A DNA stretch of 64,000 bases from the NCBI GenBank assembly GCA_903813345.2, contig CAIIXF020000001.1:18228001-18292000 (forward strand), written 5' to 3'. This document shows positions 14,901-63,540 of the stretch, piece after piece. A program made the position numbers and the translations under genes. Every line of letters begins with the position of its first letter. The stretch's first letter is position 1. Below the pieces are notes generated by a model. That model did not search any database. It was given only the letters and a program-made list of their open reading frames with translations, and had not been told where the DNA came from. Origin of the DNA: Owenia fusiformis. Lineage: Eukaryota.

Positions 14901-15269
14901 GTATGATACAAGTTCGTGATGCATAATAACTTGTCATTTTTCATAATTGTGCAATGATATGATATGGAATGTGATATGTCGTCGTTAAAAATGCCACAGT
15001 ATCTGGGATATAATGTTATGGTTTGTGAAAGTAGTGCGATATGACACCGTAAAACCTGGTTAATAATGCTATTCCAAGATATTTTTGATGTGCTATGATA
15101 TGTCATTGTTTTTAATGTGGCGTTGCGATTGATACGATTTGGTTTGACGCCCTATGGTCATGTTTATAATTGTTCAGTTTAACAATATATGATTTGATAT
15201 ACTGTGGTATAATATTGTTTTTGTATCGTATTTTATATGGTATAGCACTTGTTATAGTGGTGCAGTGTG

Positions 15270-16207
15270 ATTAACGGGATATGATTTGATATACTACTAT
15301 GTATAACATTGTAATGATGCATTCTGGTTGACAAGATATGTTTTGATGCACTATGGTATAGTATTTGCTATAATGGTCTAGTGTGATAAATAGGATATGA
15401 TTTGATATACTATGGTATAACATTGCAATGATGCATTCTGGTTGACAAGCTATGTTTTGATGCACTATGGTATAGTATTTGCTATAATGGTCTAGTGTGA
15501 TAAAAAGGATATGATTTGATATACTACTATGTATAACATTGTAATGGTGCATTCTGGTTGACAAGATATGTTTTGATGCACTATGGTATAGCATTTGTTA
15601 TATTGGTCTAGTGTGATAAATAGGATATGATTTGATATACAATGGTATAACATTGTAATGATGCATTCTGGTTGACAAGATATGTTTTGATGCACTATGG
15701 TATAGCATTTGTTATATTGGTCTAGTGTGATAAATAGGATATGATTTGATATACAATGGTATAACATTGTAATGATGCATTCTGGTTGACAAGATATGTT
15801 TTGATGCACTATGGTATAGCATTTGTTATATTGGTCTAGTGTGATAAATAGGATATGATTTGATATACAATGGTATAACATTGTAATGGTGCATTCTGGT
15901 TGACAAGATATGTTTTGATGCACTATGGTATAGCATTTGTTATATTGGTCTAGTGTGATAAATAGGATATGATTTGATATACTATGGTTTAACATTGTTA
16001 TGGTGCATTCTGGTTGACAAGATATGTTTTGATGCACTATGGTATAGCATTTGTTATATTGGTCTAGTGTGATAAATAGGATATGATTTGATATACTATG
16101 GTTTAACATTGTAATGGTGCATTCTGGTTGACAAGATATGTTTTGATGCACTATGGTACAGCATTTGTTATATTGGTCTAGTGTGATAAATAGGATGTGA
16201 TTTGATT
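15270..16207. repeat. Satellite block A: ~8 copies of a 114 bp unit (dimer of two diverged ~57 bp monomers)
   Basis: The repeat is directly visible, and the minus-strand ORF repeats with a 38-aa (114 nt) period. Both halves share the TATGGTATARCA...GTTGACAAGATATG / GTGATAAATAGGATATG backbone. Degenerate copies extend upstream to ~14900. Confidence 0.95.
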
Positions 16208-16956
16208 TTAATGTCACCCCAAAAAGTGGTGACATATTGTTATGGTCTCCAGTTTTGTTGGCGATCGTCAATCGGTTGGCGTCTGTAACAAATTCTTACA
16301 ACTTCCAATAACTTAACAAATACTGTTTAGTCTGATATCATTTTTTCAAAATCATCTATAAGTTGTCAGAAGATTAAATCTGACAAGATTTAAGATTTGA
16401 CCTTCTCAAGGTCAAAAAAAGATTAAAAAGGTCAAAAAGGTATATTTCAACTTGTTTCAAATTGACCGATTTTTTCAAAATCATCTACAAGATCTTAGAA
16501 GTTTGAATCTGACTTTAGATTTCACCTTCTATGACCTTCTCAATGTCAAAAGGGGTCAAAGGGTCTTTTTCACCTTGCTTCAAAATCATCTACAAGTTCT
16601 CAGAAGTTCAAATCTGACTATAGATTTGAGATTTGACCTCCAATGACCTGCTCAGGATCAAAAGGATTTGACCTTCAATGCCCTTCTCAAGGTCAAAAGG
16701 GTCTTTTTCAGCATTTTAAAAAAACATTTTCATGATCTGACATTAAATTTGAGATTTCACATTCAATGACCTTCTCAAGGTCAAAAAAGATTAAAAATGT
16801 CAAAAAGGTATATTTCAACTTGCTTCAAATTGACCATTTTTCCAAAATCATCTATCAAGTACAAGTACAAGTTCTCAGAAATTCAAATCTGACTTAACTT
16901 GAATTCATAATATTGCGAGCAACTAGGTGGTGACATTTTGTCTTGTCAATGTCTTG
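16208..16956 (+). mobile_element. Helentron-associated non-autonomous element (HINE/DINE-1-like) inserted in the satellite
   Basis: The 5' end has T-run + ATGTCACC (16211-16218) with a nearby inverted copy GGTGACAT (16228-16235). Internal tandem subrepeats are rich in TGACCTTCTCAAGGTCAAAA and AAAATCATCTACAAG. A 3' GGTGACAT (16929-16936) overlaps a short GACATT...AATGTC stem-loop. This matches the subTIR/IR/central-repeat/3'-hairpin layout of HINEs. Confidence 0.65.
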
Positions 16957-16959
16957 TAT

Positions 16960-17400
16960 AATAGTGTACTATTGTATAGCATTGTTTTATATTGCAGTGT
17001 GGTTGACAAGATATGTTTTGGTGTACTATATGGTATAGCATTGTTTTGTGTTGCAGTGTGGCTGACAAGATATGTTTTTGTGTACTATGGTATAGCATTG
17101 TTTTGTATTGCAGTGTGGCTGACAAGATATGTTTTTGTGTACTATGGTATAGCATTGTTTTGTATTGCAGTGTGGCTGACAAGATATGTTTTTGTGTACT
17201 ATGGTATAGCATTGTTTTATATTGCAGTGTGGTTGACAAGATATGTTTTGGTGTACTATGGTATAGCATTGTTTTATATTGCAGTGTGGTTGACAAGGTA
17301 TGTTTTGGTGTACTATATGGTATAGCATTGTTTTATATTGCAGTGTGGTTGAAAAGATGTGTAATGATGCACTATGGTATATGTATATATAGCATTGTTT
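16960..17400. repeat. Satellite block B: ~7 copies of a 57 bp unit
   Basis: Unit GTACTATGGTATAGCATTGTTTTRTATTGCAGTGTGGYTGACAAGATATGTTTTKGT. Overlapping ORFs show a 19-aa periodicity. Confidence 0.95.
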
Positions 17401-17599
17401 ATAATGGCGCAATGTGATTAACAAGATTTCTACTTGTACACGTATAATCAATTGTTTGTAATTTGACATTGCATAGTTAATGCACTATAATATGGCACAG
17501 TTTGGTGCAATGTGGTTGACTTAAAATGTCTGATCCTAGATTTGTATTATTGCACCTTACATTAGGTGATGACATGACATTGTTTAAATAGTGCAGATT

Positions 17600-19690
17600 G
17601 ACAAAACACGATTGTACATTACATCACGTGGCATTGTTTTAATTGTGCAATATGATGCAGTGTGATTACCAATATGTGATCTGATGTCATGTAATATGGC
17701 ATAGTTTATATTGCTACGGTTTGACTGACAAGATTTTACGTACTGTCATATGGTATTGCCTGAAATGGTGCAGTGATTGGCAAGACGTGACTGCGTACTA
17801 TCATATGGCATTGCTTGTAATGGTACCGTGTGATTGACAAGATATGCGTTAATTGCGTTAAACGTGATTGTACATTATATCACATGGCATTGTTTTAATT
17901 GTGCAATATGATGCAGTGTGATTACCAATATGTGATCTGATGTCATGTAATATGGCATTGTTTATATTGCTACGGTTTGACTGACAAGATTTTACGTACT
18001 ATCATATGGTATTGCCTGAAATGGTGCAGTGTGATTGGCAAGACGTGACTGCGTACTATCATATGGCATTGCTTGTAATGGTACCGTGTGATTGACAAGA
18101 TATGCGTTTAGGTACTATCATGTGGCATTGTGTGTAATGGTGCAGTGTGATTGACAAGATATACATTTACGTACTATCATATGGCATTGTGTGTAATGGT
18201 GCAGTGTGATTGACAAGATATGCGTTTAGGTACTATCATGTGGCATTGTGTGTAATGGTGCAGTGTGTTTGACAAGATATGCATTTACGTACTATCATGT
18301 GGCATTGTGTGTAATGGTGCAGCGTGATTGACAAGATATGCGTTTAGGTACTATCATGTGGCATTGTGTGTAATGGTGCAGTGTGTTTGACAAGATATGC
18401 ATTTACGTACTATCATATGGCATTGTGTGTAATGGTGCAGTGTGATTGACAAGATATGCATTTACGTACTATCATGTGGCATTGTGTGTAATGGTGCAGT
18501 GTGATTGACAAGATATACATTTACGTACTATCATATGGCATTGTGTGTAATGGTGCAGTGTGATTGACAAGATATGCGTTTAGGTACTATCATGTGGCAT
18601 TGTGTGTAATAGTGCAGTGCGATTGACAAGATGTGCGTTTACGTACTATCATATGGCATTGTTTGTAATGGTGCATTGTGATTTACAAGAAATGCATTTA
18701 CGTACTATCATGTGGCATTGTTTGTAATGGTCCAGTGTGATTGATAAGACATGACTGCCTAGTATCATATGACATTGTATGTAATGGTGCAGTGTAATTG
18801 ACAAGCTATTAATTCACGTACTATCATATGGCATTGTTTGAAATTGTGACGTGTGATTGACAAGATATGCATTGTTTGTTTGTTTGTTTGTTTGTTTGTT
18901 TGTTTGTTTGTAATGGTGCAGTGTGATTGACAAGATATGCAATTTACGCACTATCATATGGCATTGTTTGTAATGGTACAGTATGATCGGCAAGATATGC
19001 ATTTACGTACATCATATGGCATTGTTTGTAATGGTACAGTATGATCGGCAAGATATGCATTTACGTACATCATATGGCATTGTTTGTAATGGTACAGTAT
19101 GATCGGCAAGATATGTATTTACGTACATCATATGGCATTGTTTGTAATGGTACAGTAAGATCGGCAAGATGTGCATTTACGTACATCATATGGCATTGTT
19201 TGTAATGGTACAGTAAGATCGGTAAGATATGCATTTACGTACATCATATGGCATTGTTTGTAATGGTACAGTATGATCAGCAAGATATGCATTTACGTAC
19301 GTCATATGGCATTGTTTGTAATGGTACAGTATGATCGGCAAGATATGCATTTACGTACATCATATGGCATTGTTTGTAATGGTACAGTAAGATCGGCAAG
19401 ATATGCATTTACGTACATCATATGGCATTGTTTGTAATGGTACAGTATGATCGGCAAGATATGTATTTACGTACATCATATGGCATTTTTTGTAATGGTA
19501 CAGTATGATCGGCAAGATATGCATTTACGTACATCATATGGCATTGTTTGTAATGGTACAGTAAGATCGGCAAGATGTGCATTTACGTACATCATATGGC
19601 ATTGTTTGTAATGGTACAGTATGATCGGCAAGATATGCATTTACGTACATCATATGGCATTGTTTGTATTGGTATCGTGTGATTGACACG
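17600..19690. repeat. Satellite block C: a ~256 bp tandem duplication of degenerate monomers, then 59 bp units, then 58 bp units
   Basis: 17610-17850 is repeated at 17866-18108. The 59 bp unit GGCATTGTGTGTAATGGTGCAGTGTGATTGACAAGATATGCATTTACGTACTATCATRT runs ~18065-18960. The 58 bp unit GGCATTGTTTGTAATGGTACAGTATGATCGGCAAGATATGCATTTACGTACATCATAT runs ~18960-19670. A (TTTG)n expansion sits at ~18872-18910. Confidence 0.95.
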
Positions 19691-19794
19691 ACATGACATC
19701 GCACTGTCATATCATATAATTTTATAGCATTTTGAAAAAGTACTATATTTTCGCCTTTTTGTTCTGATGGGCATGCGTGTGTCATCGACATTCC

Positions 19795-27111: not shown

Positions 27112-27586
27112 ATGAATTCATATTTTGGAAATATACTTTCCAGCAACTTACCAGGAAATGGCTTACAGGAAAGTTTATACAACTATGATGGTAAATATGA
27201 CAATGCAAGTAACTTTTACGCTGGTATGACAGGGTATCCGGGTTACGATGACCCTAGCACAAGTGGAGGGTATCCACGGATACACAGCTATGAACCACTG
27301 GCAGGAACCGCCAAATCGCCATCATTCTCTACATATACTCCGACCACATATCCAAACTCAGGAATGCCGAACTATTACAGTGGACAAACTGCAGGGTATA
27401 TGAGCGATTCCGGAGGGAGCGGAGTGAGCCCTAAATTAGTTAACACACCTGTGGTCAGTTCCAACCAGCCAGCCCAAGCCGAGTCATCGCCGCTCCCCAG
27501 CGCCGGCTACGGTAGTGCCTCTCCGGGTCTTGCAGTCTCGCCAACCACTAGTCAGTATTCCACATGGGTGCGTCAAGTTAACGGAG
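27112..27586 (+). CDS. Lox5: Lox5 homeobox gene, coding exon 1
   Basis: The ORF starts MNSYF (Hox N-terminal SSYF-like motif) and is S/P/Y/G-rich. A hexapeptide-position motif YSTWVR is followed by a phase-1 donor GAG|GTAGGT at 27586/27587. This splices in frame to the homeobox exon across a 1533 bp intron, giving a predicted 257 aa protein. Confidence 0.9.
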
Positions 27587-29094
27587 GTAGGTCCAGCAAC
27601 ATCCATAACACTTATGCATCTACTAATTTATTGAAGTGTTTCAATTATCTTTTGATGGGCATTATAGGAAGTGGCGTAGGGCATGAAACATTAACAGGCA
27701 CATAAACAACTTCGTTATGTCCATTTAAATACTACATGACCAACAATCATATATCATAAAAATCAATCATTTTACCTGTATATTATATTGTTTTATTGGG
27801 ATTCTATCAACTATAAATATATAATTCAAAGATGATAAATTTGGAGTTATGATTTGTTCAAGGAATCATATACCAGAATACTTAAGTGCATTATCCATGC
27901 ATCTATCAATATAACATATAATGCATCGGGGAGTCATCAATTCTGACTGTATCTAATATTTTATTTTAACCCATCCATCATGCTTGTTGTTAGGTGCCAT
28001 GGCCCATACACCGCACAAGCCTCCTCTGGTTTAAAACATTCATCATGTAATTTGGGAACACAAAACACAATGCAACAGTAAAATGAGGATATGTCGTGCT
28101 GATCTATTTGATAAAACCCTAAAAGATGTTTATTAGAACTTCGAGCCAAAAACCAATATAAACTTTAATAAGATAGCTGTTGATAACTCTTTGGAATGCA
28201 AACTGTTTTAAATTCTGGGGGTATCTAACTGAGGTTCCTAACTCATCTCAACTTTAATCAATAGAGTGTCTAATTAGAGATGGGCTGTTCCAATTGTCTA
28301 TAATCGGCTAGGGGACTTGGCAATACACTCTTTATTATCACATATCTGTTTTGTATCAAACCGAGTGTCCCATGAGAGAGAAAGGTTGAACCGCAGTTCA
28401 TTATAACAATATGAAATAGTATCATCCCTCATGTCATGCGGTCAGTCGGTTCACGCCCATACATACCATATTCGACTCATTTTATTTTTGTAATCCCCAA
28501 ATTGTCACTTGCTGGGTGGGTTGGTATTGTGTAACAATCCAGTGAAGGAGATAGGAGATGAATGACAAGGGCCGGTGTCTATGAAGTCTGGAGTGTATTA
28601 ACACCCACTCCTATGATTAACTGCTCGGTTGCATGATGCTACTAGTTTTTGTTGTTGACCACTTAGATAGATATTTCAATGGTATGCCTTGATGAAAAGT
28701 TATCAAATAGTCACTGACTTAGAATAATGGAAAAGAAAATCCCATTGAAGTTTCATTCAATAATTCACTAAGTTAGATTTTTCAGTTATCACGAAATTCA
28801 TTTAGTGCTCGTGAAAGTGCTCTTACTAGTACTTCAAAAGAAACTTTCTAAATTGAAACAAAGGAACTTGTATTTGCAATTGACTATAGAGGAAATGGGA
28901 TAGGGCTAAATGCAAGTAACATAACGTTTTGATGTATGGAGTGCTGCAATTGACTTTTTGTTGAAATTTGAGAAATTTAAAAGTATTTGAAATAAGAGTA
29001 AAAACATTAGAAATGGATAACAGCATATTACGCAGCTAATGGAATTACATTTTATATCATTTTACTATTCGAACCTTGTTTAGTTTTTTGTTGA

Positions 29095-29418
<324 letters not shown>

Positions 29419-53959: not shown

Positions 53960-54557
53960 ATGAGTTTATACTCCCTCAAATCCCCGGCTGCCTATAACTC
54001 GTTTATGAGCGATAGTGGTGGCGGCGGACACAGAGAATTCACACATTCTGAGAATCCATACCGCGCTTATACGAGCGGTTATCCGTACACATCTCATACA
54101 GCAGCGCCGTCAGGTTCAACGCATCAGAACGGTACACCAACCGATTATAGCAGCTTCTCGAATCCAGCTACTCAGCGTCTCATACACCCATCGTATAACA
54201 GAGAGGACAGTCCCACACCAGTTAACAACAACAAGCCCATGCCGGCCGCAACCACGTCCGTGATTACCTCAACCAGTCCACAGGATTACTCCATCAAAAG
54301 TAGAACAACCACGGAATTCGCCACAACAAAGTCAAGTAGCCAGATTACAGACAGAGACAGTGCGGTCGACTCGCCCTCTCCAACTCCTGGAAGTGTAGGC
54401 TCGCCCGTGAGTCCCGGTCAACCAAACAAGGATAATGACAAATACGTTAAAGAGGAAGAAGACGGGAGTGATCGGGAGGACAGGGATGGAGAAGGGGGTG
54501 CCGATAACCCAAACATACAGATATACCCCTGGATGAGAAGGGTTCATCTCGGACATG
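53960..54557 (+). CDS. Scr: Scr/Hox5 homeobox gene, coding exon 1
   Basis: A GC-richer ORF ends in IQIYPWMRRVHLGH, a Scr/Hox5-type hexapeptide context. It is directly followed by a consensus phase-1 donor ATG|GTAAGT at 54557/54558. Confidence 0.95.
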
Positions 54558-56851
54558 GTAAGTTACAAACTTGTACATATTTCATAAATTATCTGTATAT
54601 TTCATGATGGTATTAACTGCATTTTACTGACAGTGTAGATAATGCTGCTCGTATTACGCTCATATGTCACATTGCTTTAATTAATGACATCACTTTCATA
54701 TTTTGTTGATTTATGGTATAAACATTTGTTAGCCCATATGTGAAACAACTCCAGTATTCATTGAAAAGAAAAATCACCATCCTATATATATTTGCATTTA
54801 TACTATTTATCTAAATTGTATCGTATTTAAAATGATTTATATATTTTACTTTAGCGATGTGAGTAGTTAGAGAATCTATCATTTATCTAACTTTAGAGAT
54901 GATGATTATCATTTAGGAACGTCAATAAGGCTTCAAACCCTCGGGAGAAGTATTCAATTAAAATGATCTACGTTATTAGGTGTTAGTTTAGGTGTAACTT
55001 TTCTAAGATTGCATATTTTGTTGACCTGCATGATGTATTTTGGACCCCTGGTATTCGGGCCAACTCCATGTTTACATTAGCACGGGGATATCATTATAAC
55101 TGATAGAATATGACTAATGTCTTCCCCTCAGGGTTCCTCTTTATTTAGCAACCTTTGACCCCGCCGTTCACTTTTGATTTGTATCATACACTATTTACTG
55201 GGTCATACGACAAATTCTGAAATTGGTATGTACTTGTCCATTTTTATTGTAGAATCAAAAAGACTTTGTCGTTATAATGATGAGACCAAGCACACCTATG
55301 TAAAGTTAATGTACATTTATTTATAGTATGTTTGACAGGACATCATTGTGAACTTCATTCAGAATGGTAAACAGGAATCACTTGGCCAGTACAGGGCACA
55401 CGCTATGATAGCACTAACAAAATATTAATGATATCAACACAGCTGTATTAAAACACATCGAATCAGACCAATATGATAATGGTTGGTAAAACAAGCACCA
55501 AAGCATTCATTCAATATATCTTAAGTGTAACAACACCTTCACCCATCTAGGTATTATGAAGTTGTACGTGTACAGAACATTGTCACCTGGTAACCACTCT
55601 CTGGTAGATCATCCATTCATAATGTTACAATAATCCATGCTTTCTTAGTTGTTGACATTTATAAGAAAAGCTCATTTGATGAAATATAATTATATTTAAT
55701 GCTGAAAAAACCTTGAAATGATAAATTACCTTATCGAGACGAGCAGAATTAAGCGAATTATTATGAAATACAAAATTGAAAAATAAAAAATCCCATAAAT
55801 AGATAGGTCAAGGTCAAACAACTAAAAGATGTTTTAATTTATCATAATGAAGGCTTATTGGTAGTCTGATGAATGCTGCAGTTTGAACACTCATTCCTTC
55901 ATCTGAGAATCTGCATCTGTATCCCACACAGACTTTACTGATTAAAATCTCACCAATTGGGGTGATGGCCCATCATTTTTCACAATTAAACCATTTGATA
56001 AAGAGTCTATTTATCAATGTGATTCAATCATCGGCTGACTGTCATACAGATATGCGTCTACCCATACTTCTCAAAACGCCCTGTCACCATGGGCCAATTT
56101 TTCAATCAGGAAACACATGATGCGAGTCATGTCATGTTGTCAAAATTTGTATTCTCATGGTATAATCTTGTTAATGATTTTATTATTTATCTATATATAC
56201 CGGTATTTACATATAATCACATTATATATTACGTTTAATTGTTTTTGTTTTATATCAAACGGTGACCCCTCATGAAACATTTCTTTTAGATCTTATATTA
56301 ATTCCATCTGGGAAAATGCCTCTGTGAACTTCATTTGACTTTACTGTTCCATATTGTTTGTTGGTGTTTGTACACTACATGTTAGTATTGTTTAATTATG
56401 GCGACAGCATTATACCATCATCACATCATGTATTATTCATTAAGTCTTTTTACTCTAACATAACATCCGATTCAATCCGATCGACTGTTCACCTGTCAGT
56501 TGAAACTGTGCATGAGTTTTGTTTTTCTGTAATATTACGATGTAGTCGTGTACAGAAAATATAAGGAAACTAAAATGCATAAAACCTTATTCAAATTAAA
56601 ATTCCGAAACATATATATGCCTGTAGTCACATGCTCTACCAAGTCAAACAAAGTTTGAAAGAGTTTGAATATCATGTCAGACCCACAGTTCTTTTCATTT
56701 GCATCATTCCATACTAAAATCATAGATGCTGCATGAGATTCTTATGATCTGGAAACTGTTTTCAAGATGCTATTAGCACCAAAAGTCAACCTAAATCCCG
56801 TCCATCTCCCCTTCATTCCCCACCCCATTAGTTTTGAAGGTACGCGTACTA

Positions 56852-57637
56852 TACAGGGTGGTCAAACATTTGAACACTACTAAATGTATGTAGGAAACCA
56901 TTTCACATTTTGCAACAAATTGTTACTGAGAACCGTTTCAAAATAATTCATTCAATTTTTGTGTCCCTCAATTTATCTATTGATATTGGCCAAACGTCCA
57001 ATAATGTTTGCCTTGGAAGATCAAATCTGGTGACATGATCACCATTTTGTATTCAATTTATTGGTATCATATTTTGATGATTATTGTTGGTTATATTACT
57101 GATGTAATATTCTTCTCCAAAAGGAGGGCAATCTGTTTCAACTGATATATGAAGCCCTTCCTCTATAATGTTGCAAGTTACCAGTTTTCTTTTTAAATAT
57201 CTTAACAGTTAAACGAGTCTGTTTTCCGATTCACCAGTATTATTATTGTCATTTTAGTTTAGAATTGGTCTTTGAAGCTTTGTAAATAACTTAAATGTCA
57301 GTTTTGCCTTCTAGAAAAGTTGAGTAGCTGTACAGATGTTGCAGTATACCCACCTCTGACATGTTCTTTCCTCTCTGTTCTTAAATGCATCTAATCATTC
57401 GATCTTATTTTAATTTATAAAATATGTATATTGAAAGAAAGAATTTTGGAAAAACATCGGCAAATTTGACAAATGTATATTTAAGAAAACGAGGTCCTAT
57501 CAAACATTGGGCATCTACATATTAACTTTATGAATTGGACCTGCAAACTTTACAGCCAGCAGGTATTCACTTTGCATAGAAAAATGAATAAATGTTCACA
57601 ATTAACAAAGGTTCTGATATTTTTGGACCACTCTGTA
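56852..57637. mobile_element. Possible highly decayed Tc1/mariner-type element in the Scr intron
   Basis: TACAGGGTGGTCAAA (56852) has inverted counterparts TTTTGGACCACTCTGTA (57621-57637) and TTTTGGATCACCCTGTA (~57823-57839). These are TA-flanked CAGGGTG termini. No intact ORF. Confidence 0.4.
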
Positions 57638-58186
57638 GTATTTAACAGGAATGGGAGCAATAGCAACTCATACATTACACGTTTACAGTAAAACGCTTGG
57701 TGATTTTGTGACAGAATACTTCACGACATTTTCCATTCTGATGGCACCAAACACATTCGAATTTATATTTACAAATCAAAAATCTATATTACAGAAATTA
57801 ATTGAGATTATTTATCGCCCGCTTTTGGATCACCCTGTATTATCAAACTGATTGAAGCCTATGTCTGACTTTATGCACGTCTATTACTCTTACTTCTTTT
57901 CAAGTTTATCCAAATCTAAAAATAATTTATCGATTGATAATGAGAAATTCCAACAAATAGACATGTATTGAATTGATGCTTAGTGTGAACCAAACATAAC
58001 TATTGAATTCACTTCACAACAATCCTGATATTTAGTCTTGCTTCAATACCCTGGGCCCCCTGTATTATTTTCATGTAATGTGTTGGAGAAGTAGATAAGG
58101 GGGTCCACAGTCTTGGGGCAACACTACCTGATAATGAACCCTGTGTATTGTACAACATGTAAAGGGGATACCTCTCCAAAGTCTAG

Positions 58187-58330
58187 ATCCTGAAGATATT
58201 GGTATTCATTTCTTTTGATCTTCAAAATACTGGTAGTTATTTCTTTTGAACTTAAAAATACCTGTAGTCATTTCTTTTGCTTTTCAAAATACTGATAGTC
58301 ATTTATGTTGATCTTCAAAATACTGCTAGT
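58187..58330. repeat. Degenerate 31 bp minisatellite, ~4.5 copies
   Basis: A unit resembling ATCTTCAAAATACTGGTAGTYATTTCTTTTG is repeated in tandem. Confidence 0.75.
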
Positions 58331-60479
58331 TTTTCTAGGATTGTCTAGTTATCGCTAAAATGTTATGGTTAATATTGAAATATAGAAATATAGTGCACCA
58401 CTTAGTCATACAGAACCCGACATGGGTCACCCGTCTATGGCGGCAAATAAAAAATCCTATATCCATTATCATCGAGGATATTGTTCAACATATAATGAGC
58501 ACAAGGCAATAAAGTTTTCAAAAGCTTTATGTAATTGAAAAAGGACAATGTCTAATGAAGGCTGAAACAAATTAGAAACAACGGCTTAACTCAGTCTCTC
58601 TTCGCCTTAATAGAATGATAGATAAGCAACTATTCTAATAATTTGTTGACAAAAACGCCGGTGTTCGGATATACCTTGACATATTTCTGCCATTCGTGAT
58701 AAATTGATATGATTAATTGATTGAAAATGTTCTCTTTAATGTTTTTTAATGTGTGTAGTGTATTGTGAAGCCCATGAAGTAGGCATTATCTAATTGGCAA
58801 TATGATGGTGCAGGCATATGGCTTCAATTGCTACAGTCATTAACCAAACAAACACTGACTATCTGCATGATAAACACATGATTATTTTGACATATCAGAA
58901 ATAAACGACCATGTTTTACAAAACACATCCATTATAATAAATCATACCTAAAAGTAAAACATGATTTTGGCTTCTGCCATGCACGCAAAATGGTGCTAAG
59001 TCTATGTAGGATGAAACGTGTTACTTTGATGAAGATGATACGAGGACCCTTGCACGGCATATCATTGTACCATGCCCAACATCTACCGGAGATGAGCCAA
59101 AAGATACTACAACAGTGTCATGATAAAATATCCATGACAAAAATAATTGCATGTTCTGTTTGAACTTGAAAGGGGCGAAAACAACCCTTCTTAGAACATA
59201 GAACAATAAACATGACATATACATAGCTTCATACGCTCTCGATTCATCCACAGCATCACGTAAGTGTGGTTTAATGAAATTCACCCTGTCAAATGACGTA
59301 GATTGGAGACCATAGCTTGACATGCCAAACCCTCAAAATGAAAACAGTGACTCATTAGAGCATTAGGTAATCAAACCAACATTTGTGGAATGTGGTAGGG
59401 CTAATTTCACCTTAATTGAAAGTTGTGCTTCTGGAAAGTTACGTACAGCATGCTAATTTCTCAAATGACAGACGGAATTCTATTTGTAAAAATGATTTAT
59501 AAAAAGAATCACATTTATCAAACCTCCTCTGCATTAATCCACTGCAGTTGTTTGAAGTGATGGCTGACATTGCCAGTTGGTGCCGTAATGGATACATCTC
59601 TTACTTTGGTATGTAACCTTTGAAAGAAACTGGGGTAATAGGGTCACTCACCAAAGCTGAAGACAATATAATACACCAACCAGAGCACCATTCGGTCACT
59701 GCAACTTCTTTATGCATGTAGATATCAATCATGTTTCAACAGTTTGTTTATTGTGTACATTCTTTGGAATACATTGAATCTACTCAACTTGTACTCGGGT
59801 ATCAGCTGTTAGCTATGCACACATACAAATTGGTCATTATGGACAGGAGTTTTCAAATTGATAACAATACTCCCATCGTGATGCCTTTGTTCCTTAAATG
59901 TTTATGTGTGAACACAGATGATACACAAAATGGATGAGGCAGCTCAAAAGGAACTATATTGTACTAAATTTAAAACATGTATATGTTCAGTGGTCAAATG
60001 GAAAATAGATATCGATAGATTTGCAAATCAATACATCATTATAGCGACTGTAAAAAGTGCAATTAAAAAGGTCGTCCAACAAAACTGTCTATTTTAAATC
60101 GATTGGAAAAACTAGACAAAGCTTGCTCCGAAGAGGCACTGCCTCATGCCAAACATAGGAATTATTATATCTCCATGTTCTTCTTTTTTCATAATTTGCC
60201 CGTTGTGGTATTTTGAAAAGAATTGACTCCAAACAGTTTCCATTTCATTTCTCACGATAGTAATGTTTCAACTAACCAATGTAACACAGTTTATCAACGT
60301 GATTGACTTTTGATTCAACTGCGGTTACCCACAATGTCCTAAAAGACAAATCAAAGGGAACAACTTAAGAAATGATCGACATCTGTCGACTTGTTAGTAT
60401 GTACTATCCTTAGAAAACTGATATTTCACAGACCAGTGGTGTGTAAAGAGACTGATTGTAATATGACAAAACTCTGGAT

Positions 60480-60700
60480 CATACAACAGTACAATACAAA
60501 ACAGTACATAACAATACAGTATGATACAGTGATACAGTGATACAGTACAATGTAATCCAATACAACACAATACAACATAAAACAATTCAACACACAGCAC
60601 AATACGACACAATTCAATACACTACAATACGATACAATACAATACAATACAATACAATACAATACAATACAATACAATACAATACAATACAACACAATAC
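60480..60700. repeat. (AATAC)n pentanucleotide microsatellite with a degenerate 5' half
   Basis: Pure AATAC run at ~60636-60690, with variants AGTAC/GATAC/AACAC upstream. Confidence 0.95.
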
Positions 60701-61409
60701 CACGGTGCATAATGATATGGCGTGAGATAAGGTTCAGGTTAGGTAAGTTCAGGAATTGATAATCACAGCTGTACAAGGAACAGTGCATGCATGTTTAGGC
60801 ATACAATTTTAGGTCCAGTAAAGAGACTGTAGTAGTGTAAAGAGTGGTTGCATTGTGTTAAATGTAGTTGCAGGTACCATAACAATGCTAGGTTTAGGTA
60901 ACAATTTTGAGAGTGTAGCTATGTTTCAAAACTATTTTTCCTTCGCCAGATATCCGCATATCGAAATTAATTAGACAATCCTCATTTTGAGATAGAATTT
61001 GAGTGACCCTCAAACTCCCTCAGAAGATTCTAAAGTAGCTAATTGTAAGCTATCACCAAGAGGAAGCACATTGTGCAATCTAATGGAGTAATTGATCTAT
61101 CCATTACCTTCTAACGAGCTTAAACTCTCTAAAGTAAAGTAGTTCTTCTAAGACTAATTCTCACTATAAGTAGAATATTTATTTCTTATTATTTCTTATC
61201 AAGAACACATGAGGGGCAACTACAGGGAAACAAAATCAAACAATCATAAAACAAATAGAAACAATTAGTACTAAAACAGAATGGTGTCATGCCGATTTAG
61301 GAATCATAACAACCAACATGCAAATCATCTGAAATTCAAAAGCCTTGATGCAATCGTTAAACATACATGTTAGTCAAAAGAGCATGCCACGAAGAGTGCT
61401 GCTAAAACC

Positions 61410-62533
61410 ACCGTTCATAAACATATTTGGTGATATAAATCTTAAATACGCATCACATCAGACTGGAGATGAAGCTACCTTTTATAAATACATACGGCAA
61501 TATAAACTTAGCTAACAATGTGTTTTCAGATCATGATGGGGCTAGATCTTCTTTCATAAAGATTTTTGGTGATATTTTAACATCGAGCTACAATGCATTT
61601 TCTGATCAGAATGGGGCTTAAGCTGCCTTTCATAAACACATTTGGTGATATTTTAACCTCAAGTTACAATGCATTTCCAGATCAGAAAGGGGTTGAAGCT
61701 GTCTTTCATAAACACATTTGGTGATATTTTAACCTCAAGTTACAATGCATTTTCAGATCAGAAAGGGGTTGAAGCTGCCTTTCATAAACACATTTGGTGA
61801 TATTTTAACCTCAAGCTACAATGCATTTCAGATCAGCATGGGGCTGAAGCTGTCTTTCATAAACACTATTTGGTGCTATTTTAACCTCAAGCTACAATGC
61901 ATTTCAGATCAGCATGGGGCTGAAGCTGTCTTCCATAAACACTATTTGGTGATATTTTAACCTCAAGTTACGATGTACTTTCAGATCAGAATGGGGCTGA
62001 AGCTGCCTTTCATAAACACATTTGGTGATATTTCAACCTCAAGTTACAATGCATTTCAGATCAGAATGGGGCTGAAGCTGCCTTTCATAAACACATTTGG
62101 TGATATTTTAACCTCAAGTTACAATGCATTTTCAGATCAGAAAGGGGCTGTAGCTATCTTTCATCAACACATTTGTTGATATTTTAACCTCGAGCTACAA
62201 TGCATTTCAGATCAGAATGGGGCGGAAGCTGCCTTTCATAAACTCATTTGGTGATATTTTAACCTGGAGTTGCCATGCACTTTCAGATCAGAATGGGTCT
62301 GAAGCTGACTTTCAAAACGTACATATTTGATCGATTTTTTAACATCAAGTTACAATGCATTTCCAGATCAGAAAGGGGCTAAAGCTGTCTTTCATAAACA
62401 CATTTGGTGATATTTTAACCTCAAGCTACAATGCATTTCAGATCAGAATGGGGCTGAACCTGCCTTTCAAAACACATTTGGTCATATATTAACTTCAAGT
62501 TGCAATGCATTTTCAGATCAGAATGGGGCTGAA
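61410..62533 (+). repeat. ~75 bp tandem array (~15 units) overlapping the Scr intron/exon-2 junction
   Basis: Unit GCTGCCTTTCATAAACACATTTGGTGATATTTTAACCTCAAGTTACAATGCATTT(T)CAGATCAGAATGGGGCTGAA, with unit spacing of 75-80 bp. The last unit ends inside the coding exon. Confidence 0.97.
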
Positions 62534-62830
62534 ACGAAGAGGACCCGTACCTCATACACTCGTCACCAAACTCTGGAGCTAGAGAAGGAATTCCATTTCA
62601 ACCGTTATCTAACAAGACGTCGCCGAATAGAAATAGCCCATTCTCTCAATCTCACTGAAAGACAGATAAAAATTTGGTTCCAAAACAGAAGAATGAAATG
62701 GAAGAAGGAACATAAGCTAGCACATTTAGCCAAATCACAAGCTAAGATGCTGGATCTCGCTCTTGCCCAGAGAGCAGCAGAGGCCAAGATGCATCACCAT
62801 GCAGCCCATGGACACACCTTGCATCTATAA
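62517..62830 (+). CDS. Scr: Scr/Hox5 homeobox gene, coding exon 2 (homeodomain); absent from the supplied ORF track
   Basis: A TTTTCAG|AT acceptor at 62516/62517 is in phase 1. My translation is (D)[107 protein letters not shown] and KKEHK are Scr/Hox5 signatures. The intron is 7959 bp and the predicted protein is 303 aa. Confidence 0.95.
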
Positions 62831-63540
62831 ACAAACATGAACTCACGCTGTCACTTGACATTTTAGAGAATTGGTTCGAGATTTGAGTGATGTACCTCTT
62901 GCATTTGCAAGCTTGGCTGGAAATGATATGTGGCTGAGAACAGGGTAAAGAAGTCTACTGGAATAATGTAGAGGTGCAAGAAATCTATATATTCACTGAT
63001 ATAGGTGCCAGGGTAAACCTACTCGCGAACGGTGCCAGGGTAAACAGAATATATATGTTATATGTTGCATTAGTAGCATACATAACATTTGACCTATTTT
63101 ATGATTAGATGCATTTTATGGTAATAGGTAGATACAAACTGTGCAATACTTCATGAAATCATCAACAAGACGACGACGATAAACACGTTGTAAAGGAACT
63201 TACAGAGGTGCATGCATATACTGTAGACCTAGTGAATTAAAAATACTCCTTCAGAAAGGGTAAACAGATCGACATTCGTATGTATATAGAGGGTAATATT
63301 TGAATAGTAAGGAATGAACTTGATTGAATTTTAAAATATTTAACAATCCACCGATGGCATAGACATAAAATCATCAAGACACATGTTTATTTAGTTATAT
63401 TGCATGAGATAACTTGAATGTAGCCATGTAACTCCTAAAATTGTATTTACAATAGCATTTCAATAACACATTTAAATTCAAGAAAATAAATTTAAAAGTT
63501 TTTTAATTAAGCTGTGGAAATAAAGTATTATAATAGTATT
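62831..63540 (+). promoter_or_regulatory. Putative Scr 3' UTR with miR-10-family seed matches and poly(A) signals
   Basis: ACAGGGTA at 62940-62947, and CAGGGTA at 63009-63015 and 63036-63042. AATAAA at 63485-63490 and 63519-63524. The UTR end is inferred. Confidence 0.6.

Follow-up and report, generated by a model that had tools for sequence, protein, structure and literature searches.

An array of tandemly repeated splice acceptors in the Hox5/Scr intron of the annelid Owenia fusiformis: a probable mirage-type minisatellite

Introduction

How does a Hox gene obtain its homeodomain when the only acceptor that yields the annotated protein is preceded by a dozen intact copies of itself? This question is raised by the window studied here, that is, the whole 64,000-nt (64-kb) stretch of Owenia fusiformis DNA that was analysed, in which the boundary between the intron and exon 2 of a Hox gene is repeated in tandem. 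The initial annotation of the window knew of no equivalent in a Hox gene. That statement is weakly supported in that no Hox example was found; it does not hold for the kind of array, which is already described in the amphioxus minisatellites called mirages and in the human allele CBS 844ins68. In separate searches of the literature on Owenia Hox genes and on splice-site repeats, we found neither this array nor a mirage in a Hox gene. The main text of the Owenia Hox preprint (10.64898/2026.05.18.725834) contains zero occurrences of Hox5, tandem repeat, splic, isoform and satellite.

The array is probably a mirage-type minisatellite, a class described in amphioxus (PMC3087553, PMC3902484). Mirages are reported to leave splicing undisturbed, carry splice signals in many but not all of their units and have edge units that are not homogenised (PMC3087553, PMC3902484). 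The amphioxus examples lie in the globin gene BflGb6 and in Adh3 (PMC3087553), to which PMC3902484 adds troponin C and PGBD5.

Results

Identity and exon layout of the host gene

The features of the host gene, all on the + strand of the window, are as follows (a slash marks a splice junction).

53960..54557, + strand: Hox5/Scr exon 1, coding part (199 codons plus 1 nt, YPWM hexapeptide, phase 1)
54558, + strand: GT of the Hox5 donor, which reads G/GTAAGT
54558..62516, + strand: single Hox5 intron (7959 nt), as in the annotated protein
62517..62830, + strand: Hox5 exon 2, coding part (end of the linker, homeodomain, C-terminal tail, TAA stop)
63519..63524, + strand: AATAAA poly(A) signal

It was found that exon 1 is 100% identical to protein CAH1773438.1 (P0001; 303 aa, source label Owenia fusiformis), the single member of its protein cluster. 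The sequence of this protein corresponds to exon 1 spliced to the last acceptor of the array, at 62516, which gives a canonical linker of 13 aa. The linker, homeodomain and C-terminal peptide match Capitella Scr and Alitta Hox5, and the traits of Hox5/Scr are all present: YPWM, a linker of 12-16 aa, an Scr-type homeodomain and the lophotrochozoan C-terminal peptide. The host gene of the array is Hox5/Scr of the annelid O. fusiformis; the protein matches and the 13-aa linker bear out the first naming of the gene as Scr.

Structure of the array

The array and its parts, again on the + strand, are given below.

61410..62533, + strand: minisatellite, 15 units of 73-80 nt, each pairing about 58 nt from the end of the intron with 17 nt of exon 2
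61410..61621, + strand: three decayed 5' edge units, with junctions at 61456 (CAC), 61529 (CAG) and 61604 (CTG)
61622..62383, + strand: ten interior units with intact CAG acceptors at 61680-62366

Tandem Repeats Finder reported 61515-62533 with a period of 76, 13.4 copies, 87% matches and a score of 1473, and two further decayed units extend the array back to about 61410. The intron part of each unit contains a branch-like TTAAC, a pyrimidine run and CAG, and the branch-like motif is present in nearly all non-terminal copies. Of the 15 junctions, 13 are CAG (counting the real one), ending at 61529, 61680, 61756, 61831, 61907, 61984, 62059, 62135, 62210, 62286, 62366, 62441 and 62516; the other two end at 61604 (CTG) and 61456 (CAC, decayed). 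There are therefore 12 extra intact acceptors besides the real one, with CAG kept in 12 of the 14 non-terminal copies. The unit of about 75 bp, the 13 intact acceptors and every CAG and CTG coordinate of the initial annotation hold; the copy that it placed at about 61457 is indeed decayed, with its exact junction end at 61456.

Two traits of mirages were thereby found, namely a unit that lies across an exon-intron boundary of the host gene and an AG or GT splice signal in many but not all units. The array unit had no other significant match in the 64-kb window (next best E 0.14), no A[AT]TAAA poly(A) signal was found within the array, and there was no Rfam match over 30000-64000 of the window. 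Recursive splice sites (AG/GT) were considered and rejected, as the junctions read CAG/AT; in 61400-62516, only two 9-mers resemble a donor by agreeing with the consensus at 6 of 9 positions, and neither is at a junction.

Divergence of the units

All 15 units differ from one another, the smallest distance being 2 alignment columns and the longest exact repeat 66 nt. The three 5' edge units differ from the consensus in 36, 21 and 13 columns and most interior units in 2-8, the lowest identity to the consensus being 74%. An exception is the 80-nt unit ending at 62366, which differs in 13 columns despite its interior position. The earlier observation that the units differ and decay towards the 5' end is thus right in that all are unique and the 5' edge is the most decayed; the decay is not monotonic. 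Some substitutions are shared in a nested manner: the units ending at 61680 and 61756 share two, and those ending at 61831 and 61907 share one. Such nested sets fit real duplication, as would be expected.

Interior units next to each other did not resemble one another more closely than randomly drawn pairs (p 0.57), and therefore simple local turnover is without support from the neighbour test. The third trait of mirages, concerted evolution from which the boundary units are excluded, was also found, subject to the divergent 62366 unit (13 columns) and to this neighbour result.

Substitutions were counted against the consensus in 13 non-terminal units (979 sites). The overall number was 75 of 979 (7.7%), and the site classes gave 1/26 for the AG, 1/26 for the branch T/A, 17/221 for the exon copy and 58/758 for the intron copy (p 0.7-1.0), with the power for the AG being low (2 changes expected, 1 seen). 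The exon copies carry 11 distinct changes, of which one is synonymous (in comparison to 10 of the 51 possible changes) and one creates a stop. Because all site classes lie at the 7.7% background, the decoys appear to be neither purged nor detectably preserved. There is no sign in the substitutions of selection for or against the decoys, at the low power available for the AG.

Predicted products of the acceptors

When exon 1 was joined to the first 11 intact acceptors in turn and translated, a stop was met 14-30 residues past the junction, in agreement with the roughly 31 codons initially claimed; for the ten interior acceptors (61680-62366) the premature stop lies 14-17 residues past it. The predicted products are 213-229 aa long (229 aa by way of 61529 and 213 aa by way of 62366), with YPWM present and the homeodomain absent. 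Such transcripts would have their stop in the last exon and a 3' UTR lengthened from 0.7 kb to 1.1-1.9 kb.

The 12th acceptor, at 62441, is different and had been missed initially. It is in frame and stop-free, so the predicted product has 328 aa with a full homeodomain and a linker of 38 aa, in comparison to 13 aa by way of 62516.

62442..62516, + strand: stop-free 75-nt segment after 62441, which would add 25 aa to the linker between YPWM and homeodomain if spliced in

The segment 61530-61604, which looks the second oldest at the 5' end, and the last segment, 62442-62516, have the same open 75-nt frame and encode a similar peptide; this hints that both edges of the array retain an older 75-nt form and that the interior is an expanded 76-nt variant.

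The linker was surveyed in the 120 relatives listed of 1753 matches; 95 of them, each with a single homeodomain and a [YF]PWM motif, could be parsed, and 25 were left out. Among these listed matches, 92 of the 95 parsed relatives have a linker of 12-16 aa; the linkers of the remaining three, of 6, 7 and 46 aa, are of non-Hox5 type. No protein with a 25-aa insertion was found among proteins of 70-224 aa, nor among the 120 matches listed of 1753 (166-531 aa). An open last segment is also not rare by chance, because two of the 14 inter-junction segments have a length of 3n and are stop-free.

Choice among the acceptors

The acceptors and the first 17 exon bases are near-identical between decoys and the real site, as first noted, and by sequence no decoy appears inferior to the acceptor in use. 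What differs is the sequence further downstream.

62534..62591, + strand: purine-rich exon stretch, candidate splicing enhancer by composition only, present only behind the real acceptor

Bases +18 to +75 behind 62516 have a purine fraction of 0.57, six GAR triplets and no TTT, whereas behind the other 14 junctions the purine fraction is 0.40-0.48, with 0-1 GAR and 4-8 TTT. Local folding did not distinguish the real acceptor, whose 12-nt accessibility of 0.028 lies within the range of the others (0.0007-0.119).

Exon definition is the likely explanation of the choice: each decoy offers only 17 nt of exon, followed by a U-rich intron copy. The last acceptor would be chosen through the purine-rich coding sequence behind it and a terminal exon with a poly(A) signal, and the decoys would be bypassed because only the last copy precedes the real purine-rich exon sequence. 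Reed and Maniatis (1986) reportedly found in vitro that the exon sequence beside a duplicated splice site decides its use. Each unit contains a GGGG run, as does the real exon. This run resembles the G runs of CBS 844ins68, an allele with two identical 3' sites in which splicing goes to the distal one, a choice promoted by the G runs between them (PMC1802585, PMC2630376). By analogy with that allele, the run in each Owenia unit may add silencing of the hnRNP-H type, with the caveat that the same run is present in the real exon.

RNA and DNA reads at the array

Reads of four of the 24 sequencing runs listed were aligned to 62392-63141, which comprises exon 2 and the one and a half units before it. 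The target is without exon 1, and junctions to exon 1 could therefore not show as joins. In run X14, which we guess to be RNA, there was one contig of 1711 nt (word depth 12.6) that aligned to 62516-63141 from contig base 698. Its 697 unaligned upstream bases fit, by length alone, exon 1 plus a leader of about 100 nt, and by length the contig ends at about 53860 and about 63529, just past the AATAAA at 63519. By length, the contig fits a spliced mRNA that uses the last acceptor; contigs drop rare forms. No X14 contig lay on 62392-62515.

In the RNA run X23, one raw read starts at 62516 and a second lies inside the array, on about 62396-62469, so the raw reads near the junction are one against one. 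This array read may come from pre-mRNA or DNA, or it could be decoy-spliced mRNA. To judge from depth bins, it continues for 11 nt beyond the exon copy, thus entering the unit that follows, and it stops where the interior units carry an extra T. As one read, it weakly supports a true tandem array in the animals from which X23 was made. Run X21 had no read over 62392-62591, and most X21 and X23 reads aligned to the target derive from other homeobox genes. No read or contig starts at 62441/62442, at very low depth, and no decoy junction was seen at an RNA depth too low to measure leakage, the junction evidence being a single read and a single contig that both use 62516. The annotation, one contig and one read agree with the initial proposal that functional Scr requires the decoys to be bypassed.

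The DNA run X24 had a mean depth of 3.6 on 62717-63141 and of zero on 62392-62566; the mapper is unspecified, and the dip alone is no finding. In a BLAST-based simulation, about 7 reads per 1x depth were expected on 62392-62516 with the array present, and a mean of 3-6 reads (lowest replicate 0.9) at 15-30% intron divergence. Differences between X24 and the window were counted at 4 of 21 third codon positions and at 5 of 111 UTR sites, so that one label may cover a divergent Owenia population or a cryptic species. The X24 blank serves only as a lead that another lineage may lack the array or have a diverged form of it. The differences at 62785-62910 number nine (4 synonymous, 5 in the UTR).

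Discussion

We consider it quite probable that the Hox5 array is a neutral mirage-type minisatellite that is bypassed by the spliceosome. A stretch of about 75 bp across the boundary between the intron and exon 2 is seen to be tandemly duplicated; from the divergence pattern, the array would then have expanded and been partly homogenised by slippage or unequal crossing-over, and the 5' edge copies left to decay. It would be tolerated because the spliceosome picks the last acceptor, as is supported for the dominant form only; the decoys would drift neutrally, and any leak would be small and unselected. The neutral minisatellite that the initial annotation held as its own alternative is hence the best fit, no decoy junction having been seen and no selection being visible. 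Its idea of a dose control or a source of truncated isoforms gained no support from either result, the RNA depth being tiny.

The array is confirmed as real in the sequence and is probably real in the animal. That it could be an artefact of assembly, or inflated by assembly, has a precedent in one mirage that was mis-assembled in a draft genome (PMC3087553). We nevertheless regard it as very unlikely, as 15 of 15 units are unique, with nested shared substitutions and identities down to 74%, which is unlike read error, and as the single X23 read, according to its depth bins, crosses into the next unit. A leaky or regulated use of the decoys would give a Hox5 protein with YPWM and without a homeodomain, the copy number tuning the dose or providing a Pbx-binding antagonist. 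The retention of CAG in 12 of 14 non-terminal copies, the branch-like motif in nearly all of them and the one array-interior X23 read speak for such leakage, as does a mouse parallel: the homeodomain-less isoform Hoxa1-T acts as a dominant negative (10.1101/2023.04.24.538176). Because translation of the truncated-product transcripts would end in the last exon, junction-dependent decay would not see them, and decay could be triggered only by their lengthened 3' UTR (1.1-1.9 vs 0.7 kb). Against this, no decoy junction was seen at the very low RNA depth, the exon copies freely take non-synonymous and stop changes, and the CAG retention is the neutral expectation; we find leakage of this kind unlikely.

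Use of 62441 as a true alternative 3' splice site would produce the 328-aa Hox5 with its 38-aa linker, in the manner of Ubx and with altered Pbx co-binding. This acceptor is in frame, stop-free and adjoins the candidate enhancer of the real exon, and in Ubx the microexons before the homeodomain alter partner binding (PMC4186791). Two of the 14 segments share the 3n length and lack of stops, however, 92 of the 95 relatives parsed among the matches listed keep to a linker of 12-16 aa, P0001 forms a one-member cluster, no insertion-bearing protein occurs among the matches listed, and no read or contig starts at 62441/62442 at very low depth. Such an isoform is decidedly unlikely. Both kinds of product could be combined in a copy-number dial, in which upstream copies leak YPWM-only proteins and the last copy gives a linker three times the conserved length, a proposal we find about as doubtful as leakage. 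If it were true, repeat turnover alone could yield linker isoforms like those of Ubx and make trunk patterning vary within populations.

The Hox5 array is like the amphioxus mirages in that its tandem units join the end of an intron to the start of the exon that follows, and in that its edge units have escaped homogenisation; as to normal splicing, which appears intact with mirages, the one contig and one read on 62516 agree for the dominant form. It differs in having 15 units of about 75 bp, whereas BflGb6 has 6 and 3 units of 150-160 bp, and in lying in an annelid, in the sole intron of a Hox gene, before the terminal exon and with one copy in frame, the mirages being cephalochordate. Length instability between haplotypes or somatic cells is a further trait of mirages; the Hox5 array was seen in a single haplotype sequence. 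CBS 844ins68 has two sites rather than 13, at an internal rather than a terminal exon, and its mechanism was tested by experiment, whereas ours is a proposal. Multi-copy repeats at exon-intron boundaries also occur in human VNTRs, but on the donor side: the 31-bp CBS repeat c.1444_1467+7(16_21) and the 37-bp repeats of F7 intron 7 (PMC2630376, PMC4238797), one 37-bp repeat of F7 being included by way of a cryptic 5' site once the real donor is mutated (PMC4238797). The Ubx microexons and Hoxa1-T illustrate possible effects of a longer linker or of homeodomain loss, which are predicted here from sequence; their isoforms arise by dedicated alternative splicing with demonstrated expression, in contrast to the predicted Hox5 products.

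As a neutral mirage, the array would add an annelid to a repeat class that is little known and has been described in lancelets, and even a Hox gene would be seen to tolerate a dozen decoy acceptors. It offers a natural test of 3' splice-site choice, with 13 near-identical sites that SNPs distinguish in a species with published developmental transcriptomes and a late onset of Hox expression (PMC9977687), and a caution for annotators and short-read mappers on junction assignment in such arrays. If leakage or the in-frame isoform were true and the copy number variable, this would be a new route to vary Hox dose and cofactor geometry.

Further observations in the window

In keeping with its identity as Hox5/Scr, the host gene has a Lox5-like gene as its neighbour in the cluster, upstream on the same strand at 27112-29418.

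27112-27586 and 29120-29418, + strand: Lox5-like Hox gene, with KLTGP after the homeodomain and exons that join in frame

We take KLTGP after the homeodomain to be a mark of Lox5; the hexapeptide position of this gene has YSTWV instead of YPWM. Upstream of it in the Hox cluster, at 15236-19695, are three related AT-rich minisatellites with periods of 114, 57 and 58, copy numbers of 8.5, 7.3 and 29.7 and a strong G-over-C skew. The Hox5 intron contains two more tandem repeats, at 58196-58330 (31-bp unit, 4.4 copies) and at 60540-60700, the latter being an (ATACA)n tract that precedes the acceptor array by about 700 bp.

Most of the X21 and X23 reads aligned to 62644-62706 come from a single other homeobox transcript, which has GC-rich flanks and reaches a depth of up to 215-fold in X23. 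On 62942-63141, in the Hox5 3' UTR, both otherwise stranded libraries contain a few opposite-strand reads, which represent either antisense RNA or DNA carry-over.
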